Shown piece after piece: positions 778 through 16,306 of a stretch of 64,000 nucleotides of DNA; the stretch's first letter is position 1; each line of letters begins with the position of its first letter. Made by a program: the position numbers and the translations under genes. Under the pieces are notes generated by a model, which had not been told where the DNA came from, did not search any database, and saw only the letters and a list, made by a program, of their open reading frames with translations. This DNA comes from Verrucomicrobiota bacterium (lineage in GTDB: Bacteria > Verrucomicrobiota > Kiritimatiellia > CAIVKH01), in NCBI GenBank assembly GCA_024233345.1, contig JACKPT010000011.1, positions 71,516 to 135,515 on the forward strand. The letters are read 5' to 3'.

Positions 778-1091
778 GAGGATTCTCCATAATTGTTGCG
801 AATACACCCGAGGATGGTCAGCGCGCTTCGATCGGCAATCTGATACCAGACTTCCTTTCCCCGGCGTTCGCACGAAACCAGCCCCACCCGGCGCATCTGG
901 GTCAAATGTTGAGAGACCGCAGCCTGGGGCAGCGAAACGGCCACCATCAACTCAAATACCGGGGCGGTGGTTTCCCGATCCAGGTATTCCACGATTTTCA
1001 GCCGATCCGGATGAGCCAATACCTTCAGCACATCCGCCATCCGGTTCAGGAGGGAGGCCGGCAAGGGTTTCGATTTTGTCGCGGTCTTCAT
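774..1091 (-). CDS. ArsR/SmtB-family metal-responsive transcriptional regulator
   Basis: 105 aa. Winged-HTH signature LKVLAHPDRLKIVEYL...LPQAAVSQHLTQMRRVGLVSCERRGKEVWY. Stop overlaps the TolC-like start (ATGA at 774-777). Confidence 0.88.
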   Translation of the reverse strand: MKTATKSKPLPASLLNRMADVLKVLAHPDRLKIVEYLDRETTAPVFELMVAVSLPQAAVSQHLTQMRRVGLVSCERRGKEVWYQIADRSALTILGCIRNNYGESS

Positions 1092-1194
1092 ATTGAGTTA
1101 TAGATATACAATGATAGTTGAATGTGTCAAGGAGAGAGAATTCTTTTTCCCCAGGGGGGTGGGGCACGACAACAACCGGGGGAGTGAACAGAAT

Positions 1195-1734
1195 CTATTC
1201 CGCGGGCTCAGGAGGTGCCATACTCTTGCTATAGAATCCGGAGCGATCAAAGCAACAGACGCGGCGTTTCCCCTTGGCAAGCATGTCGCAGGCAATATCG
1301 ATTCTTTTTTGACGGGTCTCCGCCTTCTTGGCGGACACAATCCAGTGGATCCAGTCCCGTCGAGCTATGGGGGTGAGCCTGGACCAGAGGTTGCTTGCTT
1401 CGGGGGCCCCCTTCAGGGCCGCACGGAAATCTGTGGGGATCCTGGGTTCTGGTTCACGGTCGACGGGCCTGATTTCCAGCGTTACCATTTCTCCGACGTT
1501 CGCGTTCGCGGATTCACGCAATTTCCGACTCACCTTAAGCCAATGACTCTTTTGGCCATCCGGCTCGAGCGTGGCTTGAAAGGGATGCCCATTGAGTGTT
1601 CCTTCAACCGTGGTCATGCTCCGGGTGGGAAGTTGTGCACTGGCATCCTTGGGCAGAATCAGAAATGACCAGGATTGTTTCCGGGGAGATTCCGCCGGTC
1701 GGTGAAGTGTTGCCCGGCACTGAATCATCATCAT
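1195..1734 (-). CDS. DUF1905 / YdeI-OmpD-associated family protein
   Basis: 179 aa. N-terminal WSFLILPKDASAQLPTRSMTTVEGTLNGHPFQATLEPDGQKSHWLKV (DUF1905-like). C-terminal LWSRLTPIARRDWIHWIVSAKKAETRQKRIDIACDML (YdeI-like). Family assignment is from memory of these motifs. Confidence 0.7.
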   Translation of the reverse strand: MMMIQCRATLHRPAESPRKQSWSFLILPKDASAQLPTRSMTTVEGTLNGHPFQATLEPDGQKSHWLKVSRKLRESANANVGEMVTLEIRPVDREPEPRIPTDFRAALKGAPEASNLWSRLTPIARRDWIHWIVSAKKAETRQKRIDIACDMLAKGKRRVCCFDRSGFYSKSMAPPEPAE

Positions 1735-1797
1735 CGTCCTTCCTCATATCCCTGGCCCTTCTTTTGTTCATGTCCGGACAGCGAGCGGGGATGCCGG

Positions 1798-2598
1798 CTA
1801 GAAGGAAAAGCCAGCGCGGGCACCGAGTCTCAGCCATTCGGATTCCGGTTGAAAGAAGAGTCCGCTGGCATCCAGGTCGGACTCGCCGAAATGCAGGTAG
1901 TCGAGGGTCAGGGCCAGGTCCCACCGGTCGTTTCGCCTTCCGATCACCAGGGACAACCCGGGTTCCTTTTCCGGTTCGAGGGAGATGGCGTTGGCGCCCA
2001 CCAATCCGAGATTATCCACATCTTCATCATTGGACAGCGGCAGGATCAGGAATGCCTGTCCGTACCAATCGGCATAGTCATTGAAAACGATGGCTTCGAG
2101 GCCGCCGCGCAGGTAGATCGTGGTCCAGGTTTCGTCATAGCCATAGTCTCCTCCCTGGTCCAGCTCCCGCACCCAACGGTGGAAGCCAATTCCCAGAGCC
2201 GGTTGTGCGGATGCCTTGGCTGACGCGGGGAGCACCGGAAAAATCAAGGTGGCATCGCCGGATACGCCAAGGTATCCGGTCTCCCCATCATAGGGTTCCG
2301 ATGTTCCATCGGCATCAAATACCGCACCATCGTAGTTGACCACACCACCAAATAGTTCGAGCTTGGCATCCAGAATCATGGCGGTGGAAAGGTCATGACG
2401 GAGCTGTATGCCCGCCCCCCACAGCGGGCCGTCCTCGCTAACCAGACGATCACCGTCGACGGTCTCCTCCCACGACAGGTAGGAGATTGTGGCAAAGGGT
2501 CGAAACTCGGCCGCCCTGACCGAATGAAGCGCCCCCATGAACATGAGGGTCAGCATCCATGAAAGCGGACGCGAAGGGATGAATCGCTGGTTGCGCAT
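1798..2598 (-). CDS. putative outer-membrane beta-barrel protein (uncharacterised)
   Basis: 266 aa. N-terminal signal-like segment WMLTLMFMGALHSVRAAE. Alternating hydrophobic pattern and Gly/aromatic-rich sequence. C-terminal ...GARAGFSF ends in Phe, as in many OMP barrels. Only 6 nt downstream of the M23 gene. Confidence 0.5.
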   Translation of the reverse strand: MRNQRFIPSRPLSWMLTLMFMGALHSVRAAEFRPFATISYLSWEETVDGDRLVSEDGPLWGAGIQLRHDLSTAMILDAKLELFGGVVNYDGAVFDADGTSEPYDGETGYLGVSGDATLIFPVLPASAKASAQPALGIGFHRWVRELDQGGDYGYDETWTTIYLRGGLEAIVFNDYADWYGQAFLILPLSNDEDVDNLGLVGANAISLEPEKEPGLSLVIGRRNDRWDLALTLDYLHFGESDLDASGLFFQPESEWLRLGARAGFSF

Positions 2599-2604
2599 GA
2601 TAGA

Positions 2605-3261
2605 TTACCTCCTGGAGAACGGGATGAAATGTACCAGTAAACGATAGGGATCATAGGGCCGTCCCTCTTCATTGAACACCTCAAAGTGCAGGTGCGGGGC
2701 TACCGCCATCCACCGGCGGGCGTCCGCACTGGCGCTGGTGGTTCCCATGGTTCCAATGGATTGACCGGCGCTTATCCACTGACCGGGCATGACGGTAATG
2801 GCATCCAGATGGGCATACAGGGTAAAGAAGACCCGTCCGGAAATCGGCCAGATATGTTCGATGATGACATGACGTCCAAGAATGCTTTGGTCGGGTAATG
2901 TCGTCACCTCGGATACCCGGCCCTCGGTAACGGCAGCCACTGAATCCACGGGAAACACCCCGGGGACAGAGATGGGAATGTCGGTGCCGTTACGGCAGTC
3001 GGTCATAACGACATCAATGATCTGGCCGGTCGGACGGGTTTCCCAGGCCGCGATATCGCATCCATGATGAAAGCGGCGCCCGCAATCACGGGTCCACCCG
3101 GGCAACCCATAGAGCGGATTCCACAGGGTGCGGGCGGTGTAGCGATCAGGCGCGGTATGGAGATCGGTGCGCAGGGTAGGCCAGTGCCATGGGCATCCCT
3201 CCTCGGACGGGGGCGATAGGAACGTGGTGTTGGCAATCGATCGTGTGGGAGGCGCGTTCAT
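2605..3261 (-). CDS. M23-family (LytM-like) metallopeptidase
   Basis: 218 aa with HHGCDIA (HxxxD) and LYAHLD...APHLHFEV (HxH) motifs. ATGA overlap with the upstream gene at 3258-3261. Confidence 0.75.
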   Translation of the reverse strand: MNAPPTRSIANTTFLSPPSEEGCPWHWPTLRTDLHTAPDRYTARTLWNPLYGLPGWTRDCGRRFHHGCDIAAWETRPTGQIIDVVMTDCRNGTDIPISVPGVFPVDSVAAVTEGRVSEVTTLPDQSILGRHVIIEHIWPISGRVFFTLYAHLDAITVMPGQWISAGQSIGTMGTTSASADARRWMAVAPHLHFEVFNEEGRPYDPYRLLVHFIPFSRR

Positions 3262-4751
3262 GGTTGAGGGGAGCGGGACTCGCGCAGCCGCAGGGCCGCC
3301 GACTGCCGTAGTTGCATCAGGGGGGGCAGCCCGGTGCGTTCTCGCAATTGTGGGTCATTCATGCGCGGATCCATGTAGGTGGACCAGAGCTGGACTGCGA
3401 GCTGCTCAAATCCCGCCGCCCGACGGGCATCCCCGGCCTGGGCCCACAGGAGACTCTGGAGCAGGGTTCCTTCCACCACCGAAGTTGCCTCCTCCTGGGT
3501 CATCTGTTCGACTCTCCCCGCGAATAGATGCAGAACCACCTGATCGAGCGACGAGGTTTGATCCACCGTGGGATCAAAGCGTCGCAGTTCATCCAGCATC
3601 GACTGCGCCTTGGTTTGCTCCTGGTAGGTATAGAGAATGAACACGGCGTCCCAGAGGAAATTGCGATATCCATCCCGAAGGCTGGGGTTCTCGCTCTCGG
3701 CCATGGCCTCCCGGTACCCCTGAAGGACATAGGGCAGCACATCGAGATTCGGTGAGAGCAGAAACAGGGAGTGATCGGGATTCTGGACCAGTCGCCCCCG
3801 CCGAAATGCCTCCTGCAGGGATTGGAAGATCATTCGCCGGGAGGAAACCTGCTCATAGGTATCGCGAGCAACCTGACGGGCGCGGTAGGCCCAGTAGAGC
3901 GAATGGGAAGTGGGCAACCGCCAGTCTTGGGGTCCATAGGTGTCCTCAATCTTCTCCATGGTTTCCGGGGAGAGCGCGAAGACCCGCTCGAACGTTTCCC
4001 GCTTCATAAACGCACTGTAGACCGGCCATGCGGGATCCAAACGCAGTTCTCTTGGGGCTGTGTCATGGACCTGGGACCAGCGCCATGGATCCATATCCGC
4101 AGCCCGGAGACGATCCAGCAGGGAGGCCATTCCCTTCACCTGTTGGAGAGCCTCCCGGTTGGGCGGCAATGCTTTCCAACGCTGGAAATCGGGTCTGGCT
4201 CCCGAAAGCAATGGTTCCAACGATTCGGCCAGGGCGCGTTTGTAGTAGAGGTGTGCGTCGTCGAGCGTGCCGGCAATTTTGTGTTGATAGAGCCAGCCGA
4301 GTTCCAGCAGGAGGCGGGCATCGCCGGGATTGTAGCGGATACCTTCATTGCGCAGGAGCTCGATGCCATGCTGAACCCACCGCCATCGATCCTCCGGAGC
4401 CGGGAACATGACGCTGATATTGTAGGCCAGATTCCACGCCTGGTAGGCCCACACTTCGGTAAACCGTGGCTCCAACTTGGTGATCCAGTCCGCAAGTTGG
4501 ACCAGTTCGAAGTACCGGCCCTCCTCCTGAAGCTTGGAGGACCGCAGCCACAGAAGATCGGCAATGATGCCACGAAATCCCCCGAGGGTTACGGTGGTGA
4601 AGGCGACCAGCGGCGGGGCATTTTCCACCGGGTCCGCCTGGGTGATGCCCTGCTCACGGCGGACATCCAGGAGGTGTAGGTTCAGCCTTCCGGCCCCGAA
4701 AAGACAGGACAAGCCGAGCCCATAGAGCAGGATGGTATAGAGCCGTTTCAT
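3258..4751 (-). CDS. uncharacterised membrane-anchored, helix-rich protein
   Basis: The ORF track gives 3258-4817. I prefer the ATG at 4751 (MKRLYTILLYGLGLSCLFGAG...) because it forms an ATGA overlap with the permease stop at 4748. One N-terminal hydrophobic anchor, then a Trp/Leu-rich helical sequence (LLWLRSSKLQEEGRYFELVQLADWITKLEPRFTEVWAYQAWNLAYNISV). No motif I can name. Confidence 0.6.
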   Translation of the reverse strand: MKRLYTILLYGLGLSCLFGAGRLNLHLLDVRREQGITQADPVENAPPLVAFTTVTLGGFRGIIADLLWLRSSKLQEEGRYFELVQLADWITKLEPRFTEVWAYQAWNLAYNISVMFPAPEDRWRWVQHGIELLRNEGIRYNPGDARLLLELGWLYQHKIAGTLDDAHLYYKRALAESLEPLLSGARPDFQRWKALPPNREALQQVKGMASLLDRLRAADMDPWRWSQVHDTAPRELRLDPAWPVYSAFMKRETFERVFALSPETMEKIEDTYGPQDWRLPTSHSLYWAYRARQVARDTYEQVSSRRMIFQSLQEAFRRGRLVQNPDHSLFLLSPNLDVLPYVLQGYREAMAESENPSLRDGYRNFLWDAVFILYTYQEQTKAQSMLDELRRFDPTVDQTSSLDQVVLHLFAGRVEQMTQEEATSVVEGTLLQSLLWAQAGDARRAAGFEQLAVQLWSTYMDPRMNDPQLRERTGLPPLMQLRQSAALRLRESRSPQP

Positions 4752-6118
4752 TGTCCGGGCAGGCCGATCTCTTTGCGGGATAGGGCGAAGCTCGTCACCA
4801 GGGCGAGCAGACCACACAGGCCCACGCCCTGGATCAGCACCGCATCGATCAGCCAGCGGGTGGAGATCAACCGACCCAGCGCGAGTGCTTGCAGGGGGTC
4901 ATGCCCGGTCATTGGTTGTACCAAGGCCGCGAGAATCCGGTAGATCCCGGTGAGCAGGTAGGTACCCCAGGATCCGGCCGCTTCCGGTTGGTCGCTCCAG
5001 GGGGTGGCCACCACCCGGTTGGCCATGCCCTGGATGTACCCGGCGGTGCGTATCATGATCATCAGGTAGAGGGAGAGGAAAGCGGCGACCGGGAAGGAAA
5101 ACAATGTGCCGGCGGTCAGACCTGCTGCTATGAAAAATCCGAGTTGTCCAAGCATGAGAACGAGGCTTCGGGCGAGATTCCAGGGAAAGTCAGCGGCGGG
5201 TATCTGGAGGATCAGTCCATCGGCCGGGTGGAAAATCACCGTCACCGGCCGATCACCGCTGTTGATGTACTCGAGGGTGATCTGATCCCGTCCGGCCAGT
5301 AGTTCCGGGGGTAGGTCGATCTGATTGACTGCGGTGGGAATGCCCTCCTGCTCGATGTCCATCAATGCGGTACCGTTTGTATCACGGAGGATCCATCGAC
5401 CGGGAATGGGCTCAGCCCCCACGTTGGAGGATGACATGCGGTAGACCAGGCGCGGAGAAAGATCGGTTCGGGAAGCTGGGGGCAGGGGCAGGTTCCATTG
5501 TCGGACTCCGGATCGGCTGACCGCATTTCGTTCCAACTGCAATTGCTGAATCAATTCCCGCAATCGCTGATCGGGGGAAACATCCCCAGGAACCTGCTGA
5601 GCTGCGATTTCCTCGCGAAGGCGGTTTCGTGCTTCAGGCAATACCGACGGTTCATCCGGTTGAACCTCCCGGTGAACATACAACAGATCGCGCACCGAGA
5701 CGGTCTGACCGGAGGCCTCGATTTCCCGGTCCAATCGATGCCACAGCAAGGCGGTGGAGATGCTGCTGCAGATCACCAGCAGGGACCCGTGGAGCAAAAA
5801 GATGCCCAACCACTTGCCCAGCCAGATCGAAAGGGAGCGGACCGGCTTGGTGACCACAAGGTGAAGGGTGCGTGATTCGATCTCCCCGGCCACTGCGGCG
5901 CATCCGCTCCATAACCCGGACAAACTGAGAATCCCGAACGACAAACCAAGGGCATAGCGAAGCATAATCTGAATGGTGCCCTGCATTGTTCCATCCGACC
6001 GGATCGTCATGGGTAGAAACACAATGATCGCTAGCAGCATCGCGAATAGAGACAGCACGACCCGGGAACGAAACGCGGAACGGATGGCAATACCGGCAAT
6101 GGCCAGGACAGACTTCAT
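4748..6118 (-). CDS. ABC-2-type transporter permease with a large extracytoplasmic insert
   Basis: 456 aa, multiple hydrophobic segments. The motif AGEIESRTLHLVVTKPVRSLSIWLGKWLG is typical of NosY/GldF-like ABC-2 permeases. About 170 aa of hydrophilic insert. ATGA overlap with the ATPase gene. Confidence 0.7.
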   Translation of the reverse strand: MKSVLAIAGIAIRSAFRSRVVLSLFAMLLAIIVFLPMTIRSDGTMQGTIQIMLRYALGLSFGILSLSGLWSGCAAVAGEIESRTLHLVVTKPVRSLSIWLGKWLGIFLLHGSLLVICSSISTALLWHRLDREIEASGQTVSVRDLLYVHREVQPDEPSVLPEARNRLREEIAAQQVPGDVSPDQRLRELIQQLQLERNAVSRSGVRQWNLPLPPASRTDLSPRLVYRMSSSNVGAEPIPGRWILRDTNGTALMDIEQEGIPTAVNQIDLPPELLAGRDQITLEYINSGDRPVTVIFHPADGLILQIPAADFPWNLARSLVLMLGQLGFFIAAGLTAGTLFSFPVAAFLSLYLMIMIRTAGYIQGMANRVVATPWSDQPEAAGSWGTYLLTGIYRILAALVQPMTGHDPLQALALGRLISTRWLIDAVLIQGVGLCGLLALVTSFALSRKEIGLPGQ

Positions 6119-7152
6119 GGCGTATCGGAACCGGAATCATCCGGCGCAGCTTGCTTATCCACCGGGGCGAGCAGCGCGGTCAGCCGGGCATCAACCTCGG
6201 AGCGGGAAACCGGCCCGGTCGGGGTGGGGGGCTCCTGGGGACGGGCGAGATATTCCGCGACACCATGATCGGCGCCAACCCCGCTGGCATCCGTTTCCGC
6301 GTTACGCGCCTTTTCCACGACATCGAGGAAAATCTGCTCGAGATCCCGGCGCGGATGATCGACCAGGGGCGGCGTACCGGATTCCTGCTCCACCCGGGTC
6401 TGGATGGCCTCGATGCTGGCGAGGTCATAACCCTCCGGGAAGGTCATACGGTAACGGCCGGTTTCCTCGAGCAATGCATCGAGCGTCCCCATGGCCCGGA
6501 TGCGTCCATTGTACAGAATCGCGACCCGATCACAGAGGTCTTCGACATCCGCGAGGAGATGGGAGGTCATGAGAATGGTTTTACCGCGCCGGGCCAGAGT
6601 CAGAAGCAGATCCTTCATCTGACGGCAACCCAGTGGATCAAGACCGGATGTTGGTTCATCCAGAATAATCAGGTCCGGATCGTTGATCAGAGCCTGCGCG
6701 ACCCCGATGCGCCGGGTCATTCCTTTGGAAAATTCGCCCACAATCCGATTGCGGGCCTGTTGGAGCCCGATCATATCGAGCAACTGGGCGATGCGCCGAC
6801 TGCGCTCAGCCCGGTTGAGATCAAACAGGCGACCATAAAAATCGAGGGTCTCCCATGAGGTGAGATAGGGGTAGATGTAGGAGTTTTCCGGCAGGTAGCC
6901 CAGGCGTTTCTTGACCTGCACATCGCTGGGGGATTTGCCCAACACCGCAATCCGTCCGCGGGAGGGATGCAACAGGCCCAGCAAGAGTTTGATGGTGGTG
7001 CTCTTGCCGGACCCGTTGGGACCGAGCAGTCCAAAGATTTCCCCTCGCCGGACCTCGAAGTCGACATCCCGGACCGCAGTCACTCGAGGCCGGTGCCAGA
7101 AATCGCGGAATACCTTGGTCAGTTGCTGAACCTGGATCAGGGGCTCGGTCAT
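6115..7152 (-). CDS. ABC transporter ATP-binding protein (with ~100-aa C-terminal extension)
   Basis: Walker A GPNGSGKST, signature-like FSKGMTRR, Walker B LIILDEPTSGLD, H-loop TSH. 345 aa. Confidence 0.9.
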   Translation of the reverse strand: MTEPLIQVQQLTKVFRDFWHRPRVTAVRDVDFEVRRGEIFGLLGPNGSGKSTTIKLLLGLLHPSRGRIAVLGKSPSDVQVKKRLGYLPENSYIYPYLTSWETLDFYGRLFDLNRAERSRRIAQLLDMIGLQQARNRIVGEFSKGMTRRIGVAQALINDPDLIILDEPTSGLDPLGCRQMKDLLLTLARRGKTILMTSHLLADVEDLCDRVAILYNGRIRAMGTLDALLEETGRYRMTFPEGYDLASIEAIQTRVEQESGTPPLVDHPRRDLEQIFLDVVEKARNAETDASGVGADHGVAEYLARPQEPPTPTGPVSRSEVDARLTALLAPVDKQAAPDDSGSDTP

Positions 7153-9059
7153 GGGGTCTTTTCCGTTTGTGCGTGTTCGATCCGGATAAGTCGTGCGCTG
7201 TTGAAAACGACGATCAGCGAACCCAGGTTGTGGGCAATGGCTGCAGGGACCGGGGGGAGCCAGCTAATTCCGGAGAGGATCAGCCCCCCGAGAATGAAGA
7301 GGCCGGCAACGGCAAGGTTCTGATAAACCGCAGCCCGGGCATCACGCGAGAGGCGGATCAAGTAGGGTATGCGCATCAGATCATTATTCATCAGGGCCAC
7401 GGTGGCGCTGTGGATCGCGATATCATTGCCGGCCGCCCCCATGGCAATGCCCAGATCCCCAGCGGCAAGGGCCGGGGCATCGTTGACACCGTCGCCGATA
7501 AACGCGGTGCGGTATCCTTGGGCGTGGATGTGGCGAACATAGTCCACCTTTTGGGCGGGGAGACATTCGGCTTGCACTTCCGGGCAGCCGATGCGGTCGG
7601 CAATCATTCGGGTCACCACTTCCCGGTCCCCTGAAATCATGGCAATCTTCCGGATATTCAAATCCACCAGGCCGCGCAATGCCGGAGCCGCTTCGGGCCG
7701 CACCTGGTCTTCCAGACCAATCCAGCCCACATACTGTCCATCCTTCGCCACAAACAATGTGCTGTAGACCGCGCTGTCTCCGGATTCAGCGGCATCAAGC
7801 CGGGGATCCTGGATGCCCAATTCACGGAGCCAACTGGCCCGACCGCATTGGACAAGGGATCCGGCGACCTGGGCGGTAACACCCCGGCCCGCCGTCTCTT
7901 CCATGGACTCCGGATCGCCCAGAAGAAGGCCGGTTTGCTCGGCAAGTTTGCGCAATGCGACGGCCACGGGATGTTTGCTGAATTTCTCCGCAGTGCCAGA
8001 CCATTCCAGAAGATCCGATGGGGAGATGTCCGCCACGGGGGCAAGCCGGGCCACACCGAGTTCACCCAGGGTCAGGGTACCGGTCTTATCAAAAATCACC
8101 GCATTGATCCGCGCGGCGCCTTCGAGGTCAGAGACATTCTTTACCAGGATTCCATTGCGGGCGGCCGCCGCGAGGGCTGCAACCATGGCCGTCGGGGTTG
8201 CGAGAATCAGGGCACAGGGACAGGAGACCACCAGCATTGCGATGACCCGGTTCCAATCGCCGGTAAAGAACCATACTGCGGCGGCGAGGGTCAGCACCAC
8301 GGGTATGTAATAGCGAAGATACTGGTCGATGATGCGGGTAATGGGGAGTTTGGTCTGTTCTGCGGCCAGGATCAGTTCGCGCACTTTACCGAGGGCGGTT
8401 TCTTCGCCGATGCGACTGACCCGGACCTCGACCGCTCCGGTCAGGTTCTGGGTTCCGGCAAAGACCTGATCCCCGGGGCCTTTGTCCCGCGGAATGGACT
8501 CCCCGGTGATGGTCGCTTCATTCAGGGTGGTCTGGCCGAGGATCAGTTCGCCATCGGCCGGGACCGAGTCACCGGGGAGGAGGCGGATTCGATCCCCCAC
8601 CACCAATGCCGAGGCGGGTATTTCCTCCGATTTCCCGGCGGGCAGAATTCTCCTGGCCATGGCCGGGGTCAGGCGAATCAGGGCCTCAATCGCTCCATGG
8701 GCGCCTTTTGCGGTCTGGGTTTCGATGACCAGGGCAAGCAGCATGAAAAACGCTACGATCCCCGCAGTGCGAAAGTCTCCAAGTGCGAGCGCGGAGAGGA
8801 CCGCAATGGCGACTGGCGCATCCATGTGGAGCTCTCCCCGGAACAGATCCCGCACCGCCGACCACACGATGGGTGCCGCCAGCAGCAGGGCCCCGATCAC
8901 CGCGCTGATCTCCGCAGCCATCGGGTTGTCGGGGTAAAGAAGATCGCCCGCGTACGCAGCGATGACGAAGGCGGAACCGGTGAACAGCCAGCTCAGCCGA
9001 CCGGAACGGTCGGCGTGATCGCAGCATCCAATGGCGTGACTGTGGGATTCCGCTTTCAT
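7149..9059 (-). CDS. heavy-metal-translocating P1B-type ATPase (Zn/Cd/Co-like)
   Basis: 636 aa. TGES, CPC (VSCPCALILATP), DKTGTLT and GDGVNDAP motifs. No ferredoxin-like HMA domain, but a His/Cys-rich N-terminus (HSHAIGCCDHAD). Confidence 0.9.
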   Translation of the reverse strand: MKAESHSHAIGCCDHADRSGRLSWLFTGSAFVIAAYAGDLLYPDNPMAAEISAVIGALLLAAPIVWSAVRDLFRGELHMDAPVAIAVLSALALGDFRTAGIVAFFMLLALVIETQTAKGAHGAIEALIRLTPAMARRILPAGKSEEIPASALVVGDRIRLLPGDSVPADGELILGQTTLNEATITGESIPRDKGPGDQVFAGTQNLTGAVEVRVSRIGEETALGKVRELILAAEQTKLPITRIIDQYLRYYIPVVLTLAAAVWFFTGDWNRVIAMLVVSCPCALILATPTAMVAALAAAARNGILVKNVSDLEGAARINAVIFDKTGTLTLGELGVARLAPVADISPSDLLEWSGTAEKFSKHPVAVALRKLAEQTGLLLGDPESMEETAGRGVTAQVAGSLVQCGRASWLRELGIQDPRLDAAESGDSAVYSTLFVAKDGQYVGWIGLEDQVRPEAAPALRGLVDLNIRKIAMISGDREVVTRMIADRIGCPEVQAECLPAQKVDYVRHIHAQGYRTAFIGDGVNDAPALAAGDLGIAMGAAGNDIAIHSATVALMNNDLMRIPYLIRLSRDARAAVYQNLAVAGLFILGGLILSGISWLPPVPAAIAHNLGSLIVVFNSARLIRIEHAQTEKTP

Positions 9060-9063
9060 GGCA

Positions 9064-10122
9064 TTAGTGACCTGAGTATCCGGAGGGGGAAGATGGGGTG
9101 GCCTTGGGTTTCCCGATCTGGATGCGCAACTCGCGTCGTCCGCCAGGGTCAGCAGGAATCAAGTACCGCTGTTCCGCCTGCTGCAAAGCTGCCTGGATGG
9201 CATCTTCGCGCAACATGCCAAGGATCGTGTCCGGGTCGCCGGAGATGCTTTCTCTGATCCGGGTAAAGGTGTTGGCATCCGCATTCAGTTCATTGAGCAT
9301 GCGTTCTTTCTCGGCTTGTCCTTCAGCGCGCAGGCGGTCGGCATCACCAGCCGCTTCATTACGGGCTCGCGTTGCATAGGCCCGGGCTTCGCTGATTTGC
9401 TGGGACTGATCCTGCTCGGCGTCGATCACGTCGTTGAAGGCCAGCAGCACCTGACGTGGTGGGATAGTCGCGGTGAGATCCACACCTTCCACCGTGATCC
9501 CAAGGTTGAGCTGGGGCAGTCGCGCGCGCAGTTCCGCCTCCACGGTGGCTCGGAACTCATCCATCTTCGTGCGTAAGGCATCGTCGATCCTGGTCGCTGC
9601 GGATGCGCGGACGATGGCCCGATCGAGTTCCCGGCGAAGCAGGGCATCGGGATCGATGTGGGACAGGGCATAGGCCTTGAGATCCTGCACCCGGTACCGC
9701 AGGGTCCAGGCGGAATGAAAAATATTTGCATCGGCGGAGACACTATAGCCATCCCGCCCCGGGACAAGGGGTTGCCGCTCGTCGATAGCCATGAGGTTGG
9801 TGTCGATCCCGGTGCGCTGGTACCAGAAGGTGTCGGTTCCGAGATCTCGAATGCGCTCGGCGGGGAACCGGAGAATTTCCGAGAACGGGGTCGGCCAGGT
9901 CCAGTGGAATCCCGGTTCGAGTATTTGGTTTCCAGCCATGCCCCGCGCCTTGCCCAAAACCAGGACCATGGCCTTCTCCTGTTGGCGCACAATGAAGAAT
10001 CCACTGCCAAGGTAGGCCACAACGAGCGCGAACAAGACCCATCGCAGGAGCCGGAAACTCTGCTCGAGCGCCTGCGCGAGGGCCTTCTGACCGATCGTCT
10101 GGGTGGAGTCGGTTTCGTTCAT
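9064..10122 (-). CDS. SPFH/band-7 protein, HflK-like
   Basis: 352 aa. N-terminal TM (WVLFALVVAYLGSGFFIV), then an SPFH core (EPGFHWTWPTPFSEILRFP...GITVEGVDLTATIPPRQVLLAFNDVIDAEQ) and a coiled-coil tail. Confidence 0.8.
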   Translation of the reverse strand: MNETDSTQTIGQKALAQALEQSFRLLRWVLFALVVAYLGSGFFIVRQQEKAMVLVLGKARGMAGNQILEPGFHWTWPTPFSEILRFPAERIRDLGTDTFWYQRTGIDTNLMAIDERQPLVPGRDGYSVSADANIFHSAWTLRYRVQDLKAYALSHIDPDALLRRELDRAIVRASAATRIDDALRTKMDEFRATVEAELRARLPQLNLGITVEGVDLTATIPPRQVLLAFNDVIDAEQDQSQQISEARAYATRARNEAAGDADRLRAEGQAEKERMLNELNADANTFTRIRESISGDPDTILGMLREDAIQAALQQAEQRYLIPADPGGRRELRIQIGKPKATPSSPSGYSGH

Positions 10123-11003
10123 GGTTGGGGAGGCGGGTTCAATAGATCAAACGGAGCCCGATCTGTGCCGAGAATCACCGTCGCCTGCTCGGACAGGGTA
10201 TCCCGGAGAACATCCAGTTTTTTGAGGAAGATTGCCAGTTCGGGATCCTCGGAAAAGACGGTATAATAGGCGACCGCAGCGGCATCGCCTTCGGCGCGGA
10301 TGCGCTTGGCATCGGCTTCGGCCGTGGACAGGATGCGATCGGCTTCACTGTCCGCCTCGGCGCGGATGCGAATGGCTTCTCCCTCGCCCTCCGATCGATA
10401 GCGTTCGGCGAGTTCCTGCCGCTCGGCCCTCATTCGATCAAACACCGAAAGGGTAATGGCCTGGGGAAGTCCGATCCGCCGTATGCCCACAAAGCCGACA
10501 TCAATCCCGTACCGGTCGGCAGCCTGGGGCTGAATCCCCTGCAACACATCGGCCTCAATACGGTCCAGTCGCAGGGCTGATGCCGAGGTGTTGACCAGGT
10601 TGGAAAAGGCTACCCGTCCAATCGCCGAATTCTTGTAGGTATCCAACAGGCCGGAAAGGTTCAGTTCGGCGAGCTCGGTGCTGCCCTGTCGTTCGAGGAA
10701 CTTGGTCGGTTCGGATATCCGCCATCCGCAATACATGGACACAATCACATTCTTGCCATCGGCGGTCAGGGTTTCCGAGAGCGCGCTCTCCATGACCCGG
10801 GTGCGCCCATCAAACCGGAAGACCGACTGAATCGGCCATGGCCACCGCGAATAGAGGCCGGGGGTTTGCAGGTCCCGCACCGGTTTGCCGAAGGTGGTGA
10901 CAACGGCGACCTCGCCTTCCCGTACCACAAATAAAAATTGGGTCATCAACAGGATTCCGAGGATCAGTAATCCGACCAGAATCATGGGAATCTGCTTGTT
11001 CAT
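10119..11003 (-). CDS. SPFH/band-7 protein, HflC-like
   Basis: 294 aa. TM (MILVGLLILGILLMTQFLF), then VVREGEVAVVTTFGKPVRDLQTPGLYSRWPWPIQSV...GIDVGFVGIRRIGLPQAI and an Ala/Glu/Arg-rich coiled coil. ATGA overlaps on both sides. Confidence 0.85.
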   Translation of the reverse strand: MNKQIPMILVGLLILGILLMTQFLFVVREGEVAVVTTFGKPVRDLQTPGLYSRWPWPIQSVFRFDGRTRVMESALSETLTADGKNVIVSMYCGWRISEPTKFLERQGSTELAELNLSGLLDTYKNSAIGRVAFSNLVNTSASALRLDRIEADVLQGIQPQAADRYGIDVGFVGIRRIGLPQAITLSVFDRMRAERQELAERYRSEGEGEAIRIRAEADSEADRILSTAEADAKRIRAEGDAAAVAYYTVFSEDPELAIFLKKLDVLRDTLSEQATVILGTDRAPFDLLNPPPQP

Positions 11004-12856
11004 GGATTTATTCCTTCCGGTTCAAGGGGAACCATCTCAAAAACGCTGGTAAAGGGATCATCCTCCAGGTTGAGCCAGAGAACTTCTGATGACGCCGACG
11101 GGGTGGCGAGCAACACCAGCCGGTTGCCGATCAATCCCGCGTGGAGAGCTTCCATGGCCAGCCGGGCCCGATATACATCCGGGGCGGTATCGGCGGCCCG
11201 CTTCCGGTTATGGAATTGCGCAACTTCGGCCTCTGATAACTTGGTGCGCCGATCGCGATAGGCCTCGGCGAGGCTGACCCGGGCGGTGGCATCGGCGGTG
11301 GCGAGGGGAAGGATCCGATTGGTATAGGCGCGGGCTTCCAGGATAGCCGCTTCCTTTTCCTCCAGTGCCCCTACCACGGACTGGAATGCATCGGCGACCT
11401 GGATCGGGGGATGCAGGCCCTGCAGCCCGATGAAATCGATCTTCACCCCCAGGGCAAGCCGGTTACACTCCGCCTGAAGTTCGCGGTGTATGATGTCCGC
11501 AATTTCCGTGCGGTGCGAACTGAGCCATTCGCCGATATCTCTTGAGGATAACTCGCGGGTCAGTATCCGGTAGGCGGTATCGCGGAGTACCTGGTTGGGA
11601 TTTGCATAGCGATAGGCGTAATCCAGTGCATTGGTGATGGAAAACTCGAGCGGAAGATGCAGGCTGATCAGGTTGATGGGCACCGCACTGCTTCCCTTGT
11701 GGCTCAAACTGGCCGTGACGAACAGGTCTTCGCCGGGGAAGTGCGGCACCGTCCACAGGATTTGTGGGGGGCGCAGCAAGGTGTCATCGACGTCAACCCC
11801 GAGATGGGTTAGCAGCGCCATCCGGGCCGGAACCCGGCGAACCGCCTCAAATGGCCAGGGCCATTTCCAGTGGAAGCCGGACATGAGCAGAGGGTCCGGT
11901 TGCACCGGCTTGCCGAACCGCTCTTTGATTCCCACATCATTGGGCCCGATGATGGCCATGCTGGAAAGGGCATAAATGACGAGTATTTGAAAACCCGCGA
12001 AGGGCAACAGCGCCCGTCGAAGAAACCGGGCAAACCAGGTGCGGGAAATTGAAAACCCGAACTGGTAGTCGACAGACTCGGAAAGGGGCTTGGTCCATTC
12101 CGATGGATGAATCAGCCAGGCCCCGAGTTTGGTTTCGTAGCTTGTGGCCTTCTGGGTGTCCCGGTGGGGACTGTAGATACTCAACAAGCTGTTCCAGACC
12201 AGTTCCACCGTATGCACAACCAGCAGCACCACCAGGGTCATGCCGATCCACGCATCTGCCTGGACCAGCCCCACATGATGGGCAAGGCAGGCGAGGGCGG
12301 CGGCTACCGACCCATAGGCGGTGACTCCGGTCATCACTCCGGGCCCCCGCAACCAGCGCAGCGACGGCTCCCCGGCAAGACCGAGCAAATAGCGATGGAG
12401 CAGAAACAACACAAAGCCCTGCCCGGCCAGCAAGGCCATCGCGGGCAGGTCGAATGAAGATTCACGGGCGGTCCAAACCAGGTCGCGGTACAAGGTCCAG
12501 GCCCAGGTTGCGGTGAGGATGGCAAGGACCGGAGCGATGAAGGGTACAATGCCTTCGACCTGATGACGGGTGCGGGAGAGGGTCAGAGGGAGATCTCCCC
12601 CGGATGTTTCATCAAACAAACGCGAGTCCGCAGTCGGCGCTTGCCCAGCGAGATCCCTCGCCTCCTCGAAGGCCATCCGTTCCAGACGGAGCCGCAGATA
12701 GACCACGCAAGACTGGATCAGGGCAAGCATCTGAAATGGCATGAGACCGGAGAACACCAGCAGGCCGGAGCGGGAGCCCATGGCGCTGGACGCCGCGATG
12801 GACAAGACCATCAGGCCTGCGGAGACCAGAGCCGCTCTTTCCCCGGTCCGGGTCAT
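11000..12856 (-). CDS. polytopic membrane domain (~330 aa) fused to an HflK-like SPFH domain
   Basis: The ORF track gives 11000-12925. The ATG at 12856 (MTRTGERAAL...) forms an ATGA overlap with the upstream stop at 12853. About seven hydrophobic segments by eye, then IKERFGKPVQPDPLLMSGFHWKWPWPFEAV...GVKIDFIGLQGLHPPIQVADAFQSVVGALEEKEA. Confidence 0.75.
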   Translation of the reverse strand: MTRTGERAALVSAGLMVLSIAASSAMGSRSGLLVFSGLMPFQMLALIQSCVVYLRLRLERMAFEEARDLAGQAPTADSRLFDETSGGDLPLTLSRTRHQVEGIVPFIAPVLAILTATWAWTLYRDLVWTARESSFDLPAMALLAGQGFVLFLLHRYLLGLAGEPSLRWLRGPGVMTGVTAYGSVAAALACLAHHVGLVQADAWIGMTLVVLLVVHTVELVWNSLLSIYSPHRDTQKATSYETKLGAWLIHPSEWTKPLSESVDYQFGFSISRTWFARFLRRALLPFAGFQILVIYALSSMAIIGPNDVGIKERFGKPVQPDPLLMSGFHWKWPWPFEAVRRVPARMALLTHLGVDVDDTLLRPPQILWTVPHFPGEDLFVTASLSHKGSSAVPINLISLHLPLEFSITNALDYAYRYANPNQVLRDTAYRILTRELSSRDIGEWLSSHRTEIADIIHRELQAECNRLALGVKIDFIGLQGLHPPIQVADAFQSVVGALEEKEAAILEARAYTNRILPLATADATARVSLAEAYRDRRTKLSEAEVAQFHNRKRAADTAPDVYRARLAMEALHAGLIGNRLVLLATPSASSEVLWLNLEDDPFTSVFEMVPLEPEGINP

Positions 12857-13818
12857 TGATGAACCTCCATCATCCGAAAGCTGGCGATTCCCCACAGCAG
12901 AATACCGATCATATAGAGCCCGCAATAGTGTGCGACCTGGAATACATACGGCCAGGGGATGTCCCCGTGATTGAGCGCATCAACCGCCCAGAAGTTCTGC
13001 CAGTTGGGGATGAGCAGATACAGAAGCCGCAGCGCTTCATTGGTTTGGGCATAGGGACCGAGGAGGTAGTCTGACATCAGGCCGACCATCAGAATCACCG
13101 CGCACATCATCATCGTTCCGGTCAGCCCCAACCGGGTGGAAAGTGCCACCGCAAACGAGCAAAACAGAATCACCGCCAACCCGATGAGAGCCGCAGCGGG
13201 CAGGACCGACCATGGCATGAACGACTCCGCCCCCCCCGACATCTGTCCCGCGCTGCGCCAGAAAACCACTGCAAATGCGAGGACCACGCTGATCAGAACG
13301 TCCCGAAACGCCCCCGAGGTAAAGGGGGAACGGAACAGAAAATTGCGGAGACCGGAAACCGTAAACGCTCCCAGAATACCCAGGTAGAGCGAACCCAGGG
13401 TCCACCAGTCGATTCGATAAAGTACCCGGACCGCATGGATGGCCAGCAGCGAGGCCAGGGTAGCGGCAAAGATGAAGGCCGTCATCACCACGACTATGCC
13501 GAAAAACTTGGCAAGGAAAAACAGGGAGCGGTTCATGGGCTTGGTCACCACCGACGCCAGCGTACCCAGCCGCAATTCCCGGGAAATAGTCGACGCTGCG
13601 CCATAGCAACCCAACAGCAAGCCCGCCATCCAGAAGAGGGCCAGTGAGCTATCGCGGATCATCCGGGTCGCTTCGCCAAGTACATGGGTGATCAACAATG
13701 GGAGTAATCCAATAAACAACAGGGTACTGGCGCTGAGCAACAGAAACGCGGGCTGGCGGGAAGCCTCCAGCGTGGTTTGCCGGGCGACCGTACTGAATTG
13801 CTTGAGGGCAAGACGCAT
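12853..13818 (-). CDS. ABC-2-type permease-like integral membrane protein
   Basis: 321 aa, hydrophobic throughout. The motif STISRELRLGTLASVVTKPMNRSLFFLAKFFG matches the same family as the 456-aa permease. First gene of the long minus-strand operon. Confidence 0.65.
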   Translation of the reverse strand: MRLALKQFSTVARQTTLEASRQPAFLLLSASTLLFIGLLPLLITHVLGEATRMIRDSSLALFWMAGLLLGCYGAASTISRELRLGTLASVVTKPMNRSLFFLAKFFGIVVVMTAFIFAATLASLLAIHAVRVLYRIDWWTLGSLYLGILGAFTVSGLRNFLFRSPFTSGAFRDVLISVVLAFAVVFWRSAGQMSGGAESFMPWSVLPAAALIGLAVILFCSFAVALSTRLGLTGTMMMCAVILMVGLMSDYLLGPYAQTNEALRLLYLLIPNWQNFWAVDALNHGDIPWPYVFQVAHYCGLYMIGILLWGIASFRMMEVHQ

Positions 13819-14019
13819 GAAGTCAAACTACCATATGGACCATCCGTTTTGCCAGTGTAACCCACAGGCAGGCCAGAGTTGGATGGCGATTGTGTGACGA
13901 TATGAAAAATGGAATGGTTCGGCTGAAAGACAGGGTCATGCGGGAAAAATTCATTTTGTGCGGGGGAGGGGACCCGATGTGTGATAGTCTTGCCCAAACG
14001 ATCAACGGAGGAGAGCCTC

Positions 14020-14163
14020 ATGGCCAAACCAAACTATTCCTATGAGAAACGACAACGAGACCTCGCGAAAAAGCGGAAGAAAGAGGAAAAACGCCTGAAA
14101 AAGGCCGGTCAGGCGCCGAATAGCGATTCGAGTACTGCGAATCCATCCGCACCCGGGCTTTGA
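14020..14163 (+). CDS. small Lys/Arg-rich protein (hypothetical)
   Basis: MAKPNYSYEKRQRDLAKKRKKEEKRLKKAG... The ATG at 14020 is preceded by GGAGGAG. The track's longer start at 13981 lacks an RBS. Confidence 0.4.
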   Translation: MAKPNYSYEKRQRDLAKKRKKEEKRLKKAGQAPNSDSSTANPSAPGL

Positions 14164-14268
14164 ACCCCGGCCCGCCCGCCGGGAGCGCCAAAATGTATTT
14201 CAACATAAACGCTTTCAAACCGCTGGTGTTTAGGATAGGGTGCGATTTAATTAAGGAGTGAGTATATT

Positions 14269-14472
14269 ATGAGTAAAGGTACAGTGAAGTGGTTCAATGT
14301 TGAAAAAGGGTTCGGTTTCATTGCTCCGGACAATGGTGGCAAAGATCTGTTTGTTCATCATTCGGAAGTGAAAACCCCCGGCCGGGCGGATCTCGCCGAA
14401 GGCCAGAAAGTCGATTTTGAAGAAGGTGAAGGCCAAAAGGGCCCGTGCGCGAAAAACGTCGTACCTTGCTGA
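14269..14472 (+). CDS. cspA: cold-shock protein (CspA family)
   Basis: [32 protein letters not shown] carries the RNP1/RNP2 motifs. AAGGAG lies upstream. Confidence 0.95.
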
Positions 14473-14485
14473 TGACTGACTTGAA

Positions 14486-14525
14486 CCGGGGGGCAGGCCG
14501 ATAAGCCTACCTCCCGGTTTTTTTT
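14486..14525 (+). terminator. rho-independent terminator after cspA
   Basis: CCGGGGGGCAGG / CCTACCTCCCGG imperfect stem with loop CCGATAAG, followed by a run of eight T. Confidence 0.75.
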
Positions 14526-14798
14526 ATCTGAAAAATTCCCGCCTTTTTACCTGCACGTAATTGCATCGGACAATCCCGATCAAGGGGCAGGTCATCATCC
14601 TGAATGGCTTGTGTTACAACACCCAATGCGGGTGTATTATTGCCACAATAACAACGTCGCATAATATGTATTATGTCTAGCATCGAGCGTTCCATTCCGC
14701 CATTCGTGGTAGCTTGCGGTTGATAGGATGCTCAGGCACCGCAAGGCGTATTGCCATTTACGGATGGCCCTCCGGTCATCACCAGCTGCACGTGCTGT

Positions 14799-16274
14799 TC
14801 ACGAGGATGACTGGTGCAGTTGCCGATAGATCTTCTCGTACTCGGCGGCACTTTGATCCCAAGTATAGTCGCCAGCCATGCCACGATTCTGTAGATCCCG
14901 CCAGGCTTCTGCTTTCCGGTCGAAGCATCGAATCGCGCGCTGAACGGCATCCTGGAATGCCTTTACCGTATAGTCGGAAAAAACGAATCCATTGCCATTG
15001 GTCTGGCTGTTATCCGCATCGGTGACTGTGTCGGCCAGTCCGCCGGTATGATGAACGACCGGAACAGTGCCGTACCGCATGGCGTAGAGCTGATTGAGAC
15101 CGCAGGGTTCATACCGGGATGGCATCAGGTATAGATCCGCCCCGGCAATGATCTGCCGGGCCAACACCCGATCAAATGCATTCATGACCCGGATCCTGCC
15201 TGGCCAATGAGATTGCCATCGCAAGCACATGCCCTCGTATTGGGCATCGCCATCACCCAGTAAAATCAATCCCAGATCCGAATGACTGCCCATCAGGTCG
15301 GGAATCATTTCATCAAGCAAATCAATTCCCTTGTGCTCGGACAAACGGGTCACCATCCCCAACAACGGTCCCCGGTCAGGTATGCTCAACTCCGCCAGCT
15401 TGAGTAAAGCCCTTTTACAGTGTTGCTTGCCGGAAGGGTCTTTGACCGAATAGTTCTTGGCCAGTGCGGAATCGGTCTGTGGATCCCAGGTCTGGGTATC
15501 GATGCCGTTGGTGATGCCGCGCAGGCGATGTCGGGCATCCGAGATCACGCCATGGAGTCCGTAACCAAAAGCCTCGGTTTGAATTTCCTCGGCATAGGTC
15601 TGGCTCACCGTGGTCAGGAAATCGGCGGTATTGATACCACCTTTCAGGCAATTGATGTTTCCATAAAACTCCAGGCATTCAACGGAAAAACAGCCGAAGG
15701 GAAGGTTGCTGTAGGAGTATTCATCACCGGAAAAGATTCCCTGGTAGGCAAGATTGTGGAGCGTCAGCAGGGTCTTTTCCCGCTTGCCCCTCCCCTGCCC
15801 TCGGACACCATGTTGGAGATATAAGGGCATCAATGCGGTTTGCCAGTCATTGCAATGGACCAAAGATACCGGGCGCTCCAGCGCATCGATCAAAGCGACC
15901 GCAGCTTTTTGAAAGAACACAAACCGCTCAAAATTGTCCTCATAATCACGGTAGGATAAATTGTAGAGGTGCGCCCGGTCGAAGAATTCATCCCGGCGAA
16001 TGAAGTACTTGGCGGGTTGGATTTCCGGGGCGGTGCGCCAGACCTCGGCCCGGAATTGATGGAACCCCACCGGGATGTTCAAGACCATCCCGGTTTCCAC
16101 CAGTGGAAAATTTCCCTCGATGACTTGACGATACATGGGCATGATCTGAATCATGGACCAACCACGCCGCGCCATGGCTTCCGGCAGGGAGGCGGAAACT
16201 TCAGCCAACCCCCCGGTCGAGGCAAACGGACTCATCTCGCTGGTAATAAACGCACAATGCCCTTGATCTGCCAT
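14799..16274 (-). CDS. glgA: glycogen synthase
   Basis: 491 aa. N-terminal FITSEMSPFASTGGLAEV, plus the C-terminal GT-B region ...PSRYEPCGLNQLYAMRYGTVPVVHHTGGLADTV. Confidence 0.9.
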   Translation of the reverse strand: MADQGHCAFITSEMSPFASTGGLAEVSASLPEAMARRGWSMIQIMPMYRQVIEGNFPLVETGMVLNIPVGFHQFRAEVWRTAPEIQPAKYFIRRDEFFDRAHLYNLSYRDYEDNFERFVFFQKAAVALIDALERPVSLVHCNDWQTALMPLYLQHGVRGQGRGKREKTLLTLHNLAYQGIFSGDEYSYSNLPFGCFSVECLEFYGNINCLKGGINTADFLTTVSQTYAEEIQTEAFGYGLHGVISDARHRLRGITNGIDTQTWDPQTDSALAKNYSVKDPSGKQHCKRALLKLAELSIPDRGPLLGMVTRLSEHKGIDLLDEMIPDLMGSHSDLGLILLGDGDAQYEGMCLRWQSHWPGRIRVMNAFDRVLARQIIAGADLYLMPSRYEPCGLNQLYAMRYGTVPVVHHTGGLADTVTDADNSQTNGNGFVFSDYTVKAFQDAVQRAIRCFDRKAEAWRDLQNRGMAGDYTWDQSAAEYEKIYRQLHQSSS

Positions 16275-16306
16275 AGTTCACTTCCTACCTCGAAAGACAT
16301 ACCACG

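Follow-up and report, generated by a model that had tools for sequence, protein, structure and literature searches.

A predicted three-module operon of Kiritimatiellia that links an extra HflK/C-like SPFH trio to a P1B-type ATPase and an ABC-2 exporter

Background

In the HflK/HflC-FtsH system of Escherichia coli (structures 7vhq, 7wi3 and 9cz2) two hetero-oligomeric SPFH paralogues, which are encoded side by side, combine a transmembrane (TM) anchor with an SPFH domain and a long coiled coil. It is of interest which roles, besides the modulation of FtsH, bacterial SPFH rings may have. Human stomatin, whose cages enclose aquaporin-1 and urea transporter B (PDB 9zd2; bioRxiv 10.1101/2025.08.29.673128), furnishes a precedent for SPFH rings that have channels or transporters, rather than a protease, as clients. 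Here we describe a bacterial locus that names candidate clients of this kind. It lies in a 64,000-nucleotide stretch (hereafter the window) of contig 11 (JACKPT010000011.1, positions 71,516 to 135,515) of the Verrucomicrobiota assembly GCA_024233345.1 (3.1 Mb, 81% complete), where ten minus-strand genes, g1 to g10, occupy positions 1798-13818 and are predicted to form one operon, in which three HflK/C-like SPFH proteins are encoded together with a P1B-type ATPase and an ABC-2 exporter. The source organism is a member of Kiritimatiellia, represented by a metagenome-assembled genome (MAG) from activated sludge: near-identical DNA is present in DNA runs of activated-sludge and wastewater metagenomes, and related loci bear the titles of Kiritimatiellia and other Verrucomicrobiota MAGs.

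The trio of SPFH proteins (g2, g3 and g4) resembles HflK/HflC in its TM anchors, SPFH domains and long coiled coil, as well as in the side-by-side arrangement of paralogues that would hetero-oligomerize. It departs from that system in having three paralogues instead of two, one of which is fused to a 6-TM domain resembling that of the CDF transporters, in its transporter neighbors, in the absence of a linked ftsH and in its coexistence with a canonical hflKC pair. The stomatin cages in turn are eukaryotic and homo-oligomeric with genetically unlinked clients, and the enclosure of these clients is experimental, whereas we infer it for the trio. The locus would add to the known SPFH scaffold systems a new fusion as well as new partners that are fixed genetically. 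An earlier note on this DNA, made from the sequence without database searches, had recognized no described system in the combination of genes, and we likewise found no description of the cluster in the literature, including a survey of SPFH operons in prokaryotes from 2009 and a preprint from 2026 that examined conserved synteny across 898 genomes of Kiritimatiellia. The ten genes, in the direction of transcription, are:

g1, 12853..13818, minus strand: ABC-2 type permease of 321 residues, NosY/PmtD-like, the first gene of the operon
g2, 11000..12856, minus strand: 618-residue fusion of a CDF-like 6-TM domain and an HflK-like SPFH domain
g3, 10119..11003, minus strand: HflC-like SPFH protein of 294 residues with one N-terminal TM helix
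g4, 9064..10122, minus strand: HflK-like SPFH protein of 352 residues with one N-terminal TM helix
g5, 7149..9059, minus strand: P1B-type ATPase of 636 residues with no HMA domain
g6, 6115..7152, minus strand: ABC ATPase of 345 residues, DrrA/GldA/NodI-like
g7, 4748..6118, minus strand: ABC-2 permease of 456 residues with a soluble insert of ~190 residues after the third TM helix
g8, 3258..4751, minus strand: 497-residue protein of an unnamed family, anchored by an N-terminal TM segment that is followed by a conserved second helix (47-77) and a predicted all-alpha TPR-like solenoid
g9, 2605..3261, minus strand: M23 metallopeptidase of 218 residues
g10, 1798..2598, minus strand: putative outer-membrane beta-barrel of 266 residues, with the signal peptide and the aromatic C-terminus (...GFSF) expected of such a barrel, as read from the sequence

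Results and discussion

Organization of the operon

All ten open reading frames (ORFs) and the junctions between them were recovered at the coordinates given in the earlier note, and Pfam and NCBIfam profile searches upheld its assignment of the genes to families. Seven of the nine junctions are ATGA start/stop overlaps (12853-12856, 11000-11003, 10119-10122, 7149-7152, 6115-6118, 4748-4751 and 3258-3261), and the remaining two are gaps of 4 nucleotides (9060-9063) and 6 nucleotides (2599-2604). Alternative upstream starts are possible for g2 (TTG at 12925) and g8 (GTG at 4817); the ATG starts that create the overlaps are preferred because the alignments with homologues begin there. Junctions of this kind are common in the genome: in a crude set of ORFs from elsewhere in the window, about 9 of 29 same-strand junctions are likewise no longer than 6 nucleotides. 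Hence, a lone ATGA overlap is unremarkable, and the fixed stoichiometry that had been read from the overlaps cannot be derived from a feature found throughout the genome. The chance of nine consecutive tight junctions is nevertheless only ~0.31^9, i.e. ~3e-5, and a sequence scan found promoter-like and terminator-like sites inside the block at no more than the shuffled expectation. Both observations support the earlier suggestion of a single operon. A search of sequencing runs for the stretch recovered matching DNA runs and no RNA run containing it. The ten genes accordingly appear, as judged from their spacing and conservation, to be one operon built from three evolutionary modules: a core exporter (g1, g6, g7 and g8), a cassette (g2-g5) and a local addition (g9-g10). 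We hold these evolutionary and architectural statements with high confidence.

The g2-g5 cassette and the core exporter in related genomes

Searches with individual proteins covered 41 genomes from the family and class of the organism, and the DNA surrounding the matches was fetched. Full-length g2 is present in 21 of the 41, and an orthologue of g5 (54-69% identical, with other P1B paralogues in this set at 36-42%) occurs in exactly the same 21 genomes (naive Fisher p ~4e-12), bearing out the suspicion that the metal pump does not sit in the cluster by chance. The order g1-g2-g3-g4-g5 is colinear in 15 of 16 fetched loci. Genome G004 has its g5 orthologue apart from g1-g4. The genes g6-g7-g8 follow g5 directly in four loci (L014, L015, L023 and L024) and after a 5-kb insert in a fifth (L013), while in the other loci they occupy a separate place in the genome, where they are not accompanied by a second g1. 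As several of these loci reach 8-10 kb past g5, this split is real rather than a product of contig breaks. Thus, where the cluster is split, g1 remains with g2-g5 while g6-g8 move away.

In five genomes that lack the cassette (G009, G010, G020, G029 and G014) g1-g6-g7-g8 are contiguous, and the ends of tblastn matches put the spacing between them at a few to a few tens of nucleotides. This contiguity indicates that g1 and g7 belong to one ABC-2 transporter, in line with the earlier supposition that the two separated permeases share a single ATPase. The genes g2-g5 constitute an all-or-none cassette whose insertion or deletion occurs exactly where g1 meets g6. Each of two genera includes members with the cassette and members without it, implying that the cassette was gained or lost repeatedly and providing natural with/without comparisons within single genera. 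The core exporter module in turn is present in ~90% of the 41 genomes and is nearly universal in Kiritimatiellia: g1 is a single-copy gene in 37 of them, placed directly upstream of g2, or of g6 if the cassette is absent, g8 is found in 38, and the order g6-g7-g8 is conserved across the related loci.

Conservation of the eight-gene set across phyla

A scan with the g2 profile against one genome per prokaryotic species recovered 245 confirmed relatives. The best 80 of these 245 come from Kiritimatiellia, Verrucomicrobiia (Chthoniobacterales and Limisphaerales), Lentisphaeria, Brocadiaceae, Phycisphaerae and other Planctomycetota, the exceptions being one Omnitrophota MAG and a few entries with the generic title 'bacterium'. 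Among the loci from these best 80, g3 and g4 come after g2 in 63 of 64 evaluable cases and g1 was detected upstream of g2 in 55 of 66; the 38 loci with long flanks include g5 in 31 cases, g6-g8 in 26 and all eight genes in 18. In Phycisphaerae and other Planctomycetota the set is rearranged, such that g5 and g1 are upstream, with g1 divergent, followed by g2-g3-g4-g6-g7-g8. Where the Phycisphaerae locus lacks g5, an unlinked P1B match of 46-51% identity is found in five of seven genomes (G041, G042, G043, G045 and G048), as against 32-38% for the other P1B paralogues of the Phycisphaerae tested. A g2 homologue in one Phycisphaerae MAG (L094:9842-11893) has a single in-frame stop, which could reflect a pseudogene, a sequencing error or recoding.

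The conserved linkage that the earlier note had proposed to check by gene-neighborhood analysis therefore holds for g1-g8 in many lineages of the Planctomycetes-Verrucomicrobia-Chlamydiae (PVC) superphylum and fails for g9-g10 (see below). That this linkage has survived rearrangement across phyla argues strongly that g1-g8 are functionally related. A P1B pump and an ABC-2 transporter are thus linked to an additional HflK/C-like trio across the superphylum, with canonical hflKC kept elsewhere. An alternative would be the chance juxtaposition of unrelated sub-operons that happen to be co-transcribed, and the modular cluster, split in many genomes, and the commonness of tight junctions would agree with it. 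It is contradicted by the persistence of the eight-gene linkage in several classes and two phyla despite rearrangement, by the perfect co-occurrence of g2 and g5, and by the retention of g1 with the cassette when its ATPase moves away, so that we regard it as extremely improbable.

All-against-all clustering of the ORFs upstream of the cluster in 66 loci and downstream of it in 51 revealed neither a recurring family nor a regulator beyond g1 or g8. In three Verrucomicrobiota loci (L054:6347-6715, L062:2810-3376 and L086:7915-8409) a small ORF with a CxxC...CxxC pattern and one hydrophobic segment overlaps the start of g1 by 4 nucleotides; judging from this arrangement, it may be an extra member of the cluster in that subgroup.

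The SPFH trio

Sequence profile searches with g2 recovered the Band_7 domain (E 2.8e-15) and the hflK model TIGR01933 (111.3 bits, below its cutoff of 159.4). The protein comprises a CDF-like 6-TM domain (~1-230), an amphipathic helix with a near-invariant DYQFG motif, a seventh TM helix (274-297), the SPFH domain (300-482) and a coiled coil (485-575). In the AlphaFold2 model, with a predicted local distance difference test (pLDDT) score of 83.5, this last region forms two helices (485-557 and 559-575) of together ~90 residues, and the model displays the layout of cage-forming SPFH proteins, namely a TM anchor, SPFH1/2 and a long C-terminal coiled coil. The best Foldseek matches of the model are HflK and HflC in the cryo-EM structures of the FtsH-HflKC complex (7vhq, 9cz2 and 7wi3; E 1e-13 to 1e-10). 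Behind them rank prohibitin, stomatin, erlin and flotillin.

Outside the SPFH superfamily, the top matches are to the CDF transporters YiiP, ZnT1, ZnT4 and SLC30A10 (E 0.01-0.05, probability 1.0, TMt up to 0.59). The 6-TM bundle of g2 superposes on those of YiiP (8f6h) and ZnT1 (8xma) with TMt values of 0.4-0.59 over ~225-250 columns. By sequence, profile searches of Pfam and PDB with the N-terminal domain recovered nothing significant, and the CDF family PF01545 was matched by three of 23 such domains, at best with E 0.041. The protein does not conform to the CDF family: it shows no PF01545-level match, neither the tetrahedral metal-binding site A (DxxxD in TM2, HxxxD in TM5) nor the cytoplasmic C-terminal domain of that family is present, the seventh TM helix and the SPFH domain being found instead, and only the 6-TM fold is common to both. 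The family of this domain includes 1380 representative relatives, nearly all of 600-770 residues, which implies that the CDF-like::SPFH fusion is the norm. It is one of two large unannotated protein families that the locus exposes, the other being the g8 solenoid.

The remaining two members of the trio, g3 and g4, match the Band_7 model over its full length. The former scores above the cutoff of the hflC model TIGR01932 (150.7 bits against 134.4), while the latter scores below that of the hflK model TIGR01933 (125.0 bits against 159.4). The genome also encodes, on contig 2, a canonical hflK-hflC pair that scores far above both equivalog cutoffs (277.8 and 268.9 bits), bringing its number of HflK/C-type proteins to five; the pair (L125:2930-5058; G000 contig 2, ~113.4-115.6 kb) adjoins a Kdo transferase gene. 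The identity of g3 to this HflC is 30% and that of g4 to this HflK 20%, and given such a low identity the trio is an extra set. It would appear, on these comparisons, to be an ancient one that is not by default the FtsH modulator of the organism.

The trio might still be a specialized HflK/C complex that recruits FtsH and thereby governs the turnover of the pump and the ABC transporter. Its closest relatives by both sequence and fold, HflK and HflC, were solved in complexes with FtsH, and g3 passes the HflC equivalog cutoff; FtsH is also, to our knowledge, universal in bacteria. Such proteolytic quality control is, however, disfavored by the far higher scores of the canonical pair and the marked divergence of the trio from it, by the HflK scores of g4 and g2, both below the cutoff, and by searches of conserved neighbors, which found no ftsH in the window or among the conserved neighbors of 80 loci. 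We therefore consider it unlikely.

The P1B-type ATPase

The g5 protein scores above the cutoffs of the heavy-metal P1B model TIGR01525 (509.2 bits against 346.25) and of the Cd/Zn/Co-type model TIGR01512 (427.7 bits against 313.5), and far below those of the ZntA equivalog models. Its N-terminus is rich in His and Cys (HSHAIGCCDH), and TM4 carries a CPC motif and TM6 a histidine; an HxxxCCDH motif at the N-terminus is seen in only some of its orthologues. The regions of TM5 and TM6 read QNLAVAGLFILGG and AAIAHNLGS, respectively. ATPases of the CopA type are marked by YN in TM5 and MxxSS in TM6. A P1B-1 copper ATPase was rejected, as neither of these motifs is present and the score against TIGR01511 (376.3 bits) is below the cutoff of 397.

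In its catalytic core, the CPC of TM4 and the SxHP motif, g5 resembles the P1B-2 and P1B-4 ATPases (ZntA 4umv, CadA and sCoaT 7qbz), and it shares with P1B-4 the lack of an HMA domain. In relation to P1B-2 the CPC is present, whereas the TM5 lysine and TM6 aspartate of ZntA are both missing, with a histidine (in a His-Asn pair) in the place of the aspartate. The distances of g5 to the CopA, sCoaT and ZntA structures are about the same (250-290 bits against the P1B-2/P1B-4 structures). The motifs DKTGT, TGES, SxHP and GDGxNDxP are invariant in 23 orthologues. Two further features set g5 apart from known P1B-2/P1B-4 ATPases: it is hard-wired to an SPFH trio and, as detailed below, its CPC is degenerate in a part of its orthologues.

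The ABC-2 exporter and its TPR-like partner

The core module appears from its sequences to be an ABC-2 exporter, composed of the permeases g1 and g7, the ATPase g6 and the TM-anchored, TPR-like protein g8. Pfam recovered weak matches of g1 to ABC2_membrane_4 (E 0.0018) and of g7 to ABC2_membrane_2/3. Profile searches matched the structures of NosY (7o0y_D, E 0.018) and PmtD (E 0.031) for g1, and NosY again (E 9.3e-07) for g7, where the match is confined to positions 1-122 at the N-terminus. The g6 protein is a clear ABC_tran ATPase (E 4e-32) with scores of 217.5 bits against drrA and 184.8 bits against GldA, both below the cutoffs, and is predicted to be the only nucleotide-binding subunit for both permeases. 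A GldAFG system was rejected, the scores being 184.8 bits against a cutoff of 402.6 for GldA and 16.8 bits (g1) against 288.5 for GldF, and a Ccm-like system was rejected by reasoning.

A parallel is found in NosDFY, the ABC-2 machine that assembles the copper centre of N2O reductase (7o0y), with which the module shares the matches of g7, and more weakly g1, to NosY, a single DrrA-type ATPase, the pairing of the permease with a large extracytoplasmic partner and a metal-related context. The differences are that here two distinct permease genes would supply a heterodimer, that the partner is a TPR-like solenoid and that the match covers only the first 122 positions. Identity with NosDFY was rejected, as no NosD-like beta-helix, NosL or NosZ was found among the ten genes or their conserved neighbors.

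The partner protein, g8, shows no sequence match in Pfam (including its TPR families), NCBIfam or PDB. Its AlphaFold2 model (pLDDT 88.8) is all-alpha, and Foldseek recovered only generic TPR superhelices (E ~1e-3, TM-scores of 0.13-0.25). The family spans more than 3057 database clusters, among which all that carry names are termed 'hypothetical', and a Pfam domain (PF13428) was found in one of 120 listed relatives. In-frame TGA codons flagged in some g8 matches proved to be no more than the natural stop, past which the reading had continued.

A proposed SPFH cage with transporter clients

These architectural and contextual observations suggest a mechanism in which an HflK/C-like ring or cage would be built jointly by g2, g3 and g4 at the periplasmic side of the inner membrane, with the TM anchors of the trio and the CDF-like bundle of g2 fencing a patch of the membrane. 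This patch would contain the P1B pump and the g1/g7/g6 transporter rather than FtsH, and the cage might regulate, stabilize or couple the enclosed transporters, with g8 acting as a periplasmic adaptor. The cargo would most likely be a divalent metal of the Zn/Co/Cd type, or the system might serve its periplasmic delivery. The reason for favoring a metal is that g5 fits the P1B-2-type model, g2 has the CDF fold and the permeases are NosY-like. NosFY belongs to a machine for the assembly of copper centres, in which NosY is the permease.

As an overall explanation, a three-module operon with a transporter-client cage and a probable metal cargo is in our estimate the best available, and we give it an even chance of being correct. 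The cage with transporter clients, argued from sequences, structural models and analogy, is offered tentatively, and the cargo, which we hold with less confidence than the cage, is probably a divalent transition metal. More speculative than the cage is the full picture of a plug-in SPFH nanocompartment of the PVC bacteria, in which a three-paralogue cage with a CDF-fold fusion, gained and lost as a unit with its own P1B pump, would use g1 to dock onto a housekeeping ABC-2 exporter, with transporters and not FtsH as clients. The system is small and defined, and thus amenable to co-expression, pull-down and cryo-EM.

Several considerations weigh against this proposal. The assembly of the cage and the contact between the trio and the transporters are steps that we infer from sequence, models and analogy, and FtsH could yet be a partner of the trio. 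In half of the genomes the core exporter works without the cassette, and a single machine is therefore not required. The N-in orientation of g8, with a periplasmic solenoid, is suggested weakly by the charges around its TM1; a rough TM scan on the Hessa scale lacked the sensitivity to help here, having overlooked known TM helices. The case for a metal is weak: the DxxxD/HxxxD site of CDF transporters is absent from g2, which has no conserved aspartate or histidine inside TM2 or TM5 (the conserved acidic residues of this domain, E65 and E218, are at helix ends), and no metal regulator is conserved upstream of the cluster in 66 loci. In nine of 48 g5 orthologues (L045-L124) the CPC is replaced by CPG, CPS, CPI, IPS, CPV, VPA or SPV, and the TM6 histidine is lost in five of 42, with the catalytic motifs invariant. 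Moreover, in two of the seven Phycisphaerae genomes with a g5-less locus (G044 and G046) the best P1B match is only 41% identical, making orthology borderline.

The same substitutions of the CPC alongside invariant catalytic motifs, the missing CDF site and the want of a conserved metal regulator would all fit a non-metal envelope function, in which the ABC-2 transporter exports or flips a lipid, a glycolipid or another envelope component, the P1B-like and CDF-like components have been repurposed and the trio organizes the lipid microdomain in which this takes place. The near-universal, housekeeping-like distribution of the core module in the class would suit such a role, and ABC-2 exporters commonly move lipids and glycans. 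Yet the CPC is kept in 39 of the 48 g5 orthologues and the TM6 histidine in 37 of the 42, g5 passes the family cutoffs for heavy-metal P1B ATPases, and the related loci showed no linked gene for a glycosyltransferase or for lipid synthesis. We therefore consider this function rather unlikely, and favor the cage with transporter clients and a probable metal cargo.

The local addition of g9 and g10

The g9 protein is a member of the Peptidase_M23 family (65.6 bits against a threshold of 28.7; E 4.6e-18) in which the zinc ligands HxxxD and HxH are intact (HHGCD and HLH). On a reading of its sequence it has no N-terminal signal or TM segment. The enzyme might reside in the cytoplasm or be exported by an unconventional route. 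Among the other genomes of the class, 20 encode an orthologue (~220 residues, 43-52% identity), and 18 of these 20 belong to the same family. Homologues of g10, which has no match in Pfam or NCBIfam, occur in 21 other genomes and are never beside g8. The two genes form an adjacent pair in one other genus (G001).

These distributions bear on the proposal of the earlier note that the ten genes encode one trans-envelope machine, extending from the inner-membrane energizers via the M23 hydrolase to the outer-membrane barrel. The tight packing of g8, g9 and g10, with an ATGA overlap followed by a 6-nucleotide gap, is what prompts this reading, and partnerships of ABC transporters with M23/LytM proteins do exist, FtsEX-EnvC being an example. 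FtsEX-EnvC is similar in that ABC transporter genes adjoin the M23-domain gene g9, and dissimilar in that g9 lacks a signal peptide and, in other genomes, has no linkage to the cluster. A further difference is that the permease FtsX belongs to type VII (MacB-like) rather than to the ABC-2 type. Identity with FtsEX-EnvC was rejected by reasoning and by the missing linkage of g9 in other genomes.

In 51 related loci homologues of g9 or g10 never follow g8, even at E <=1, and in 19 of the 20 genomes the contig that carries g9 is not that of the cluster. In the twentieth (G014) it is on the contig of the cluster, ~3.3 kb away, behind an opposite-strand gene encoding 873 residues. In G004 (contig 119, L127:1571-9320) a g9 orthologue lies ~5 kb from the detached g5 orthologue. 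The placement of g9 within ~5 kb of a cluster gene in G004 and G014 is slightly above chance expectation and does not amount to one operon; an association of g9 with the cluster in these two genomes was rejected as probable chance, the opposite-strand gene intervening in G014. Together with the lack of an export signal in g9 and the occurrence of g9-g10 as a separate pair in G001, the synteny largely refutes the ten-gene machine, which we now view as very unlikely. The g9-g10 pair is a lineage-specific fusion onto the 3' end of the operon, and its linkage to the cluster occurs only in this genome.

Flanking sequences

Upstream of the operon is the following region:

13819..14288, no strand assigned: upstream intergenic region of ~450 nucleotides between g1 and the divergent cspA (14269-14472), with no long ORF

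It is likely to be the promoter and leader region of the operon. A sigma-70-like site is found on the minus strand at 14288-14261, sites of this kind being no more frequent than expected by chance. A scan of positions 1-16500 against Rfam recovered as its sole match a sub-threshold cspA thermoregulator on the plus strand (24.6 bits against 78).

Downstream of g10, and on the same strand, a DUF1905/OmdA (YdeI-like) gene (1195-1734) begins after 63 nucleotides and is followed by an ArsR-family regulator (774-1091), the 3' end of which overlaps a TolC-like OEP gene (1-873) that runs off the window. Transcription of the operon might extend into the OmdA, ArsR-family and OEP genes.

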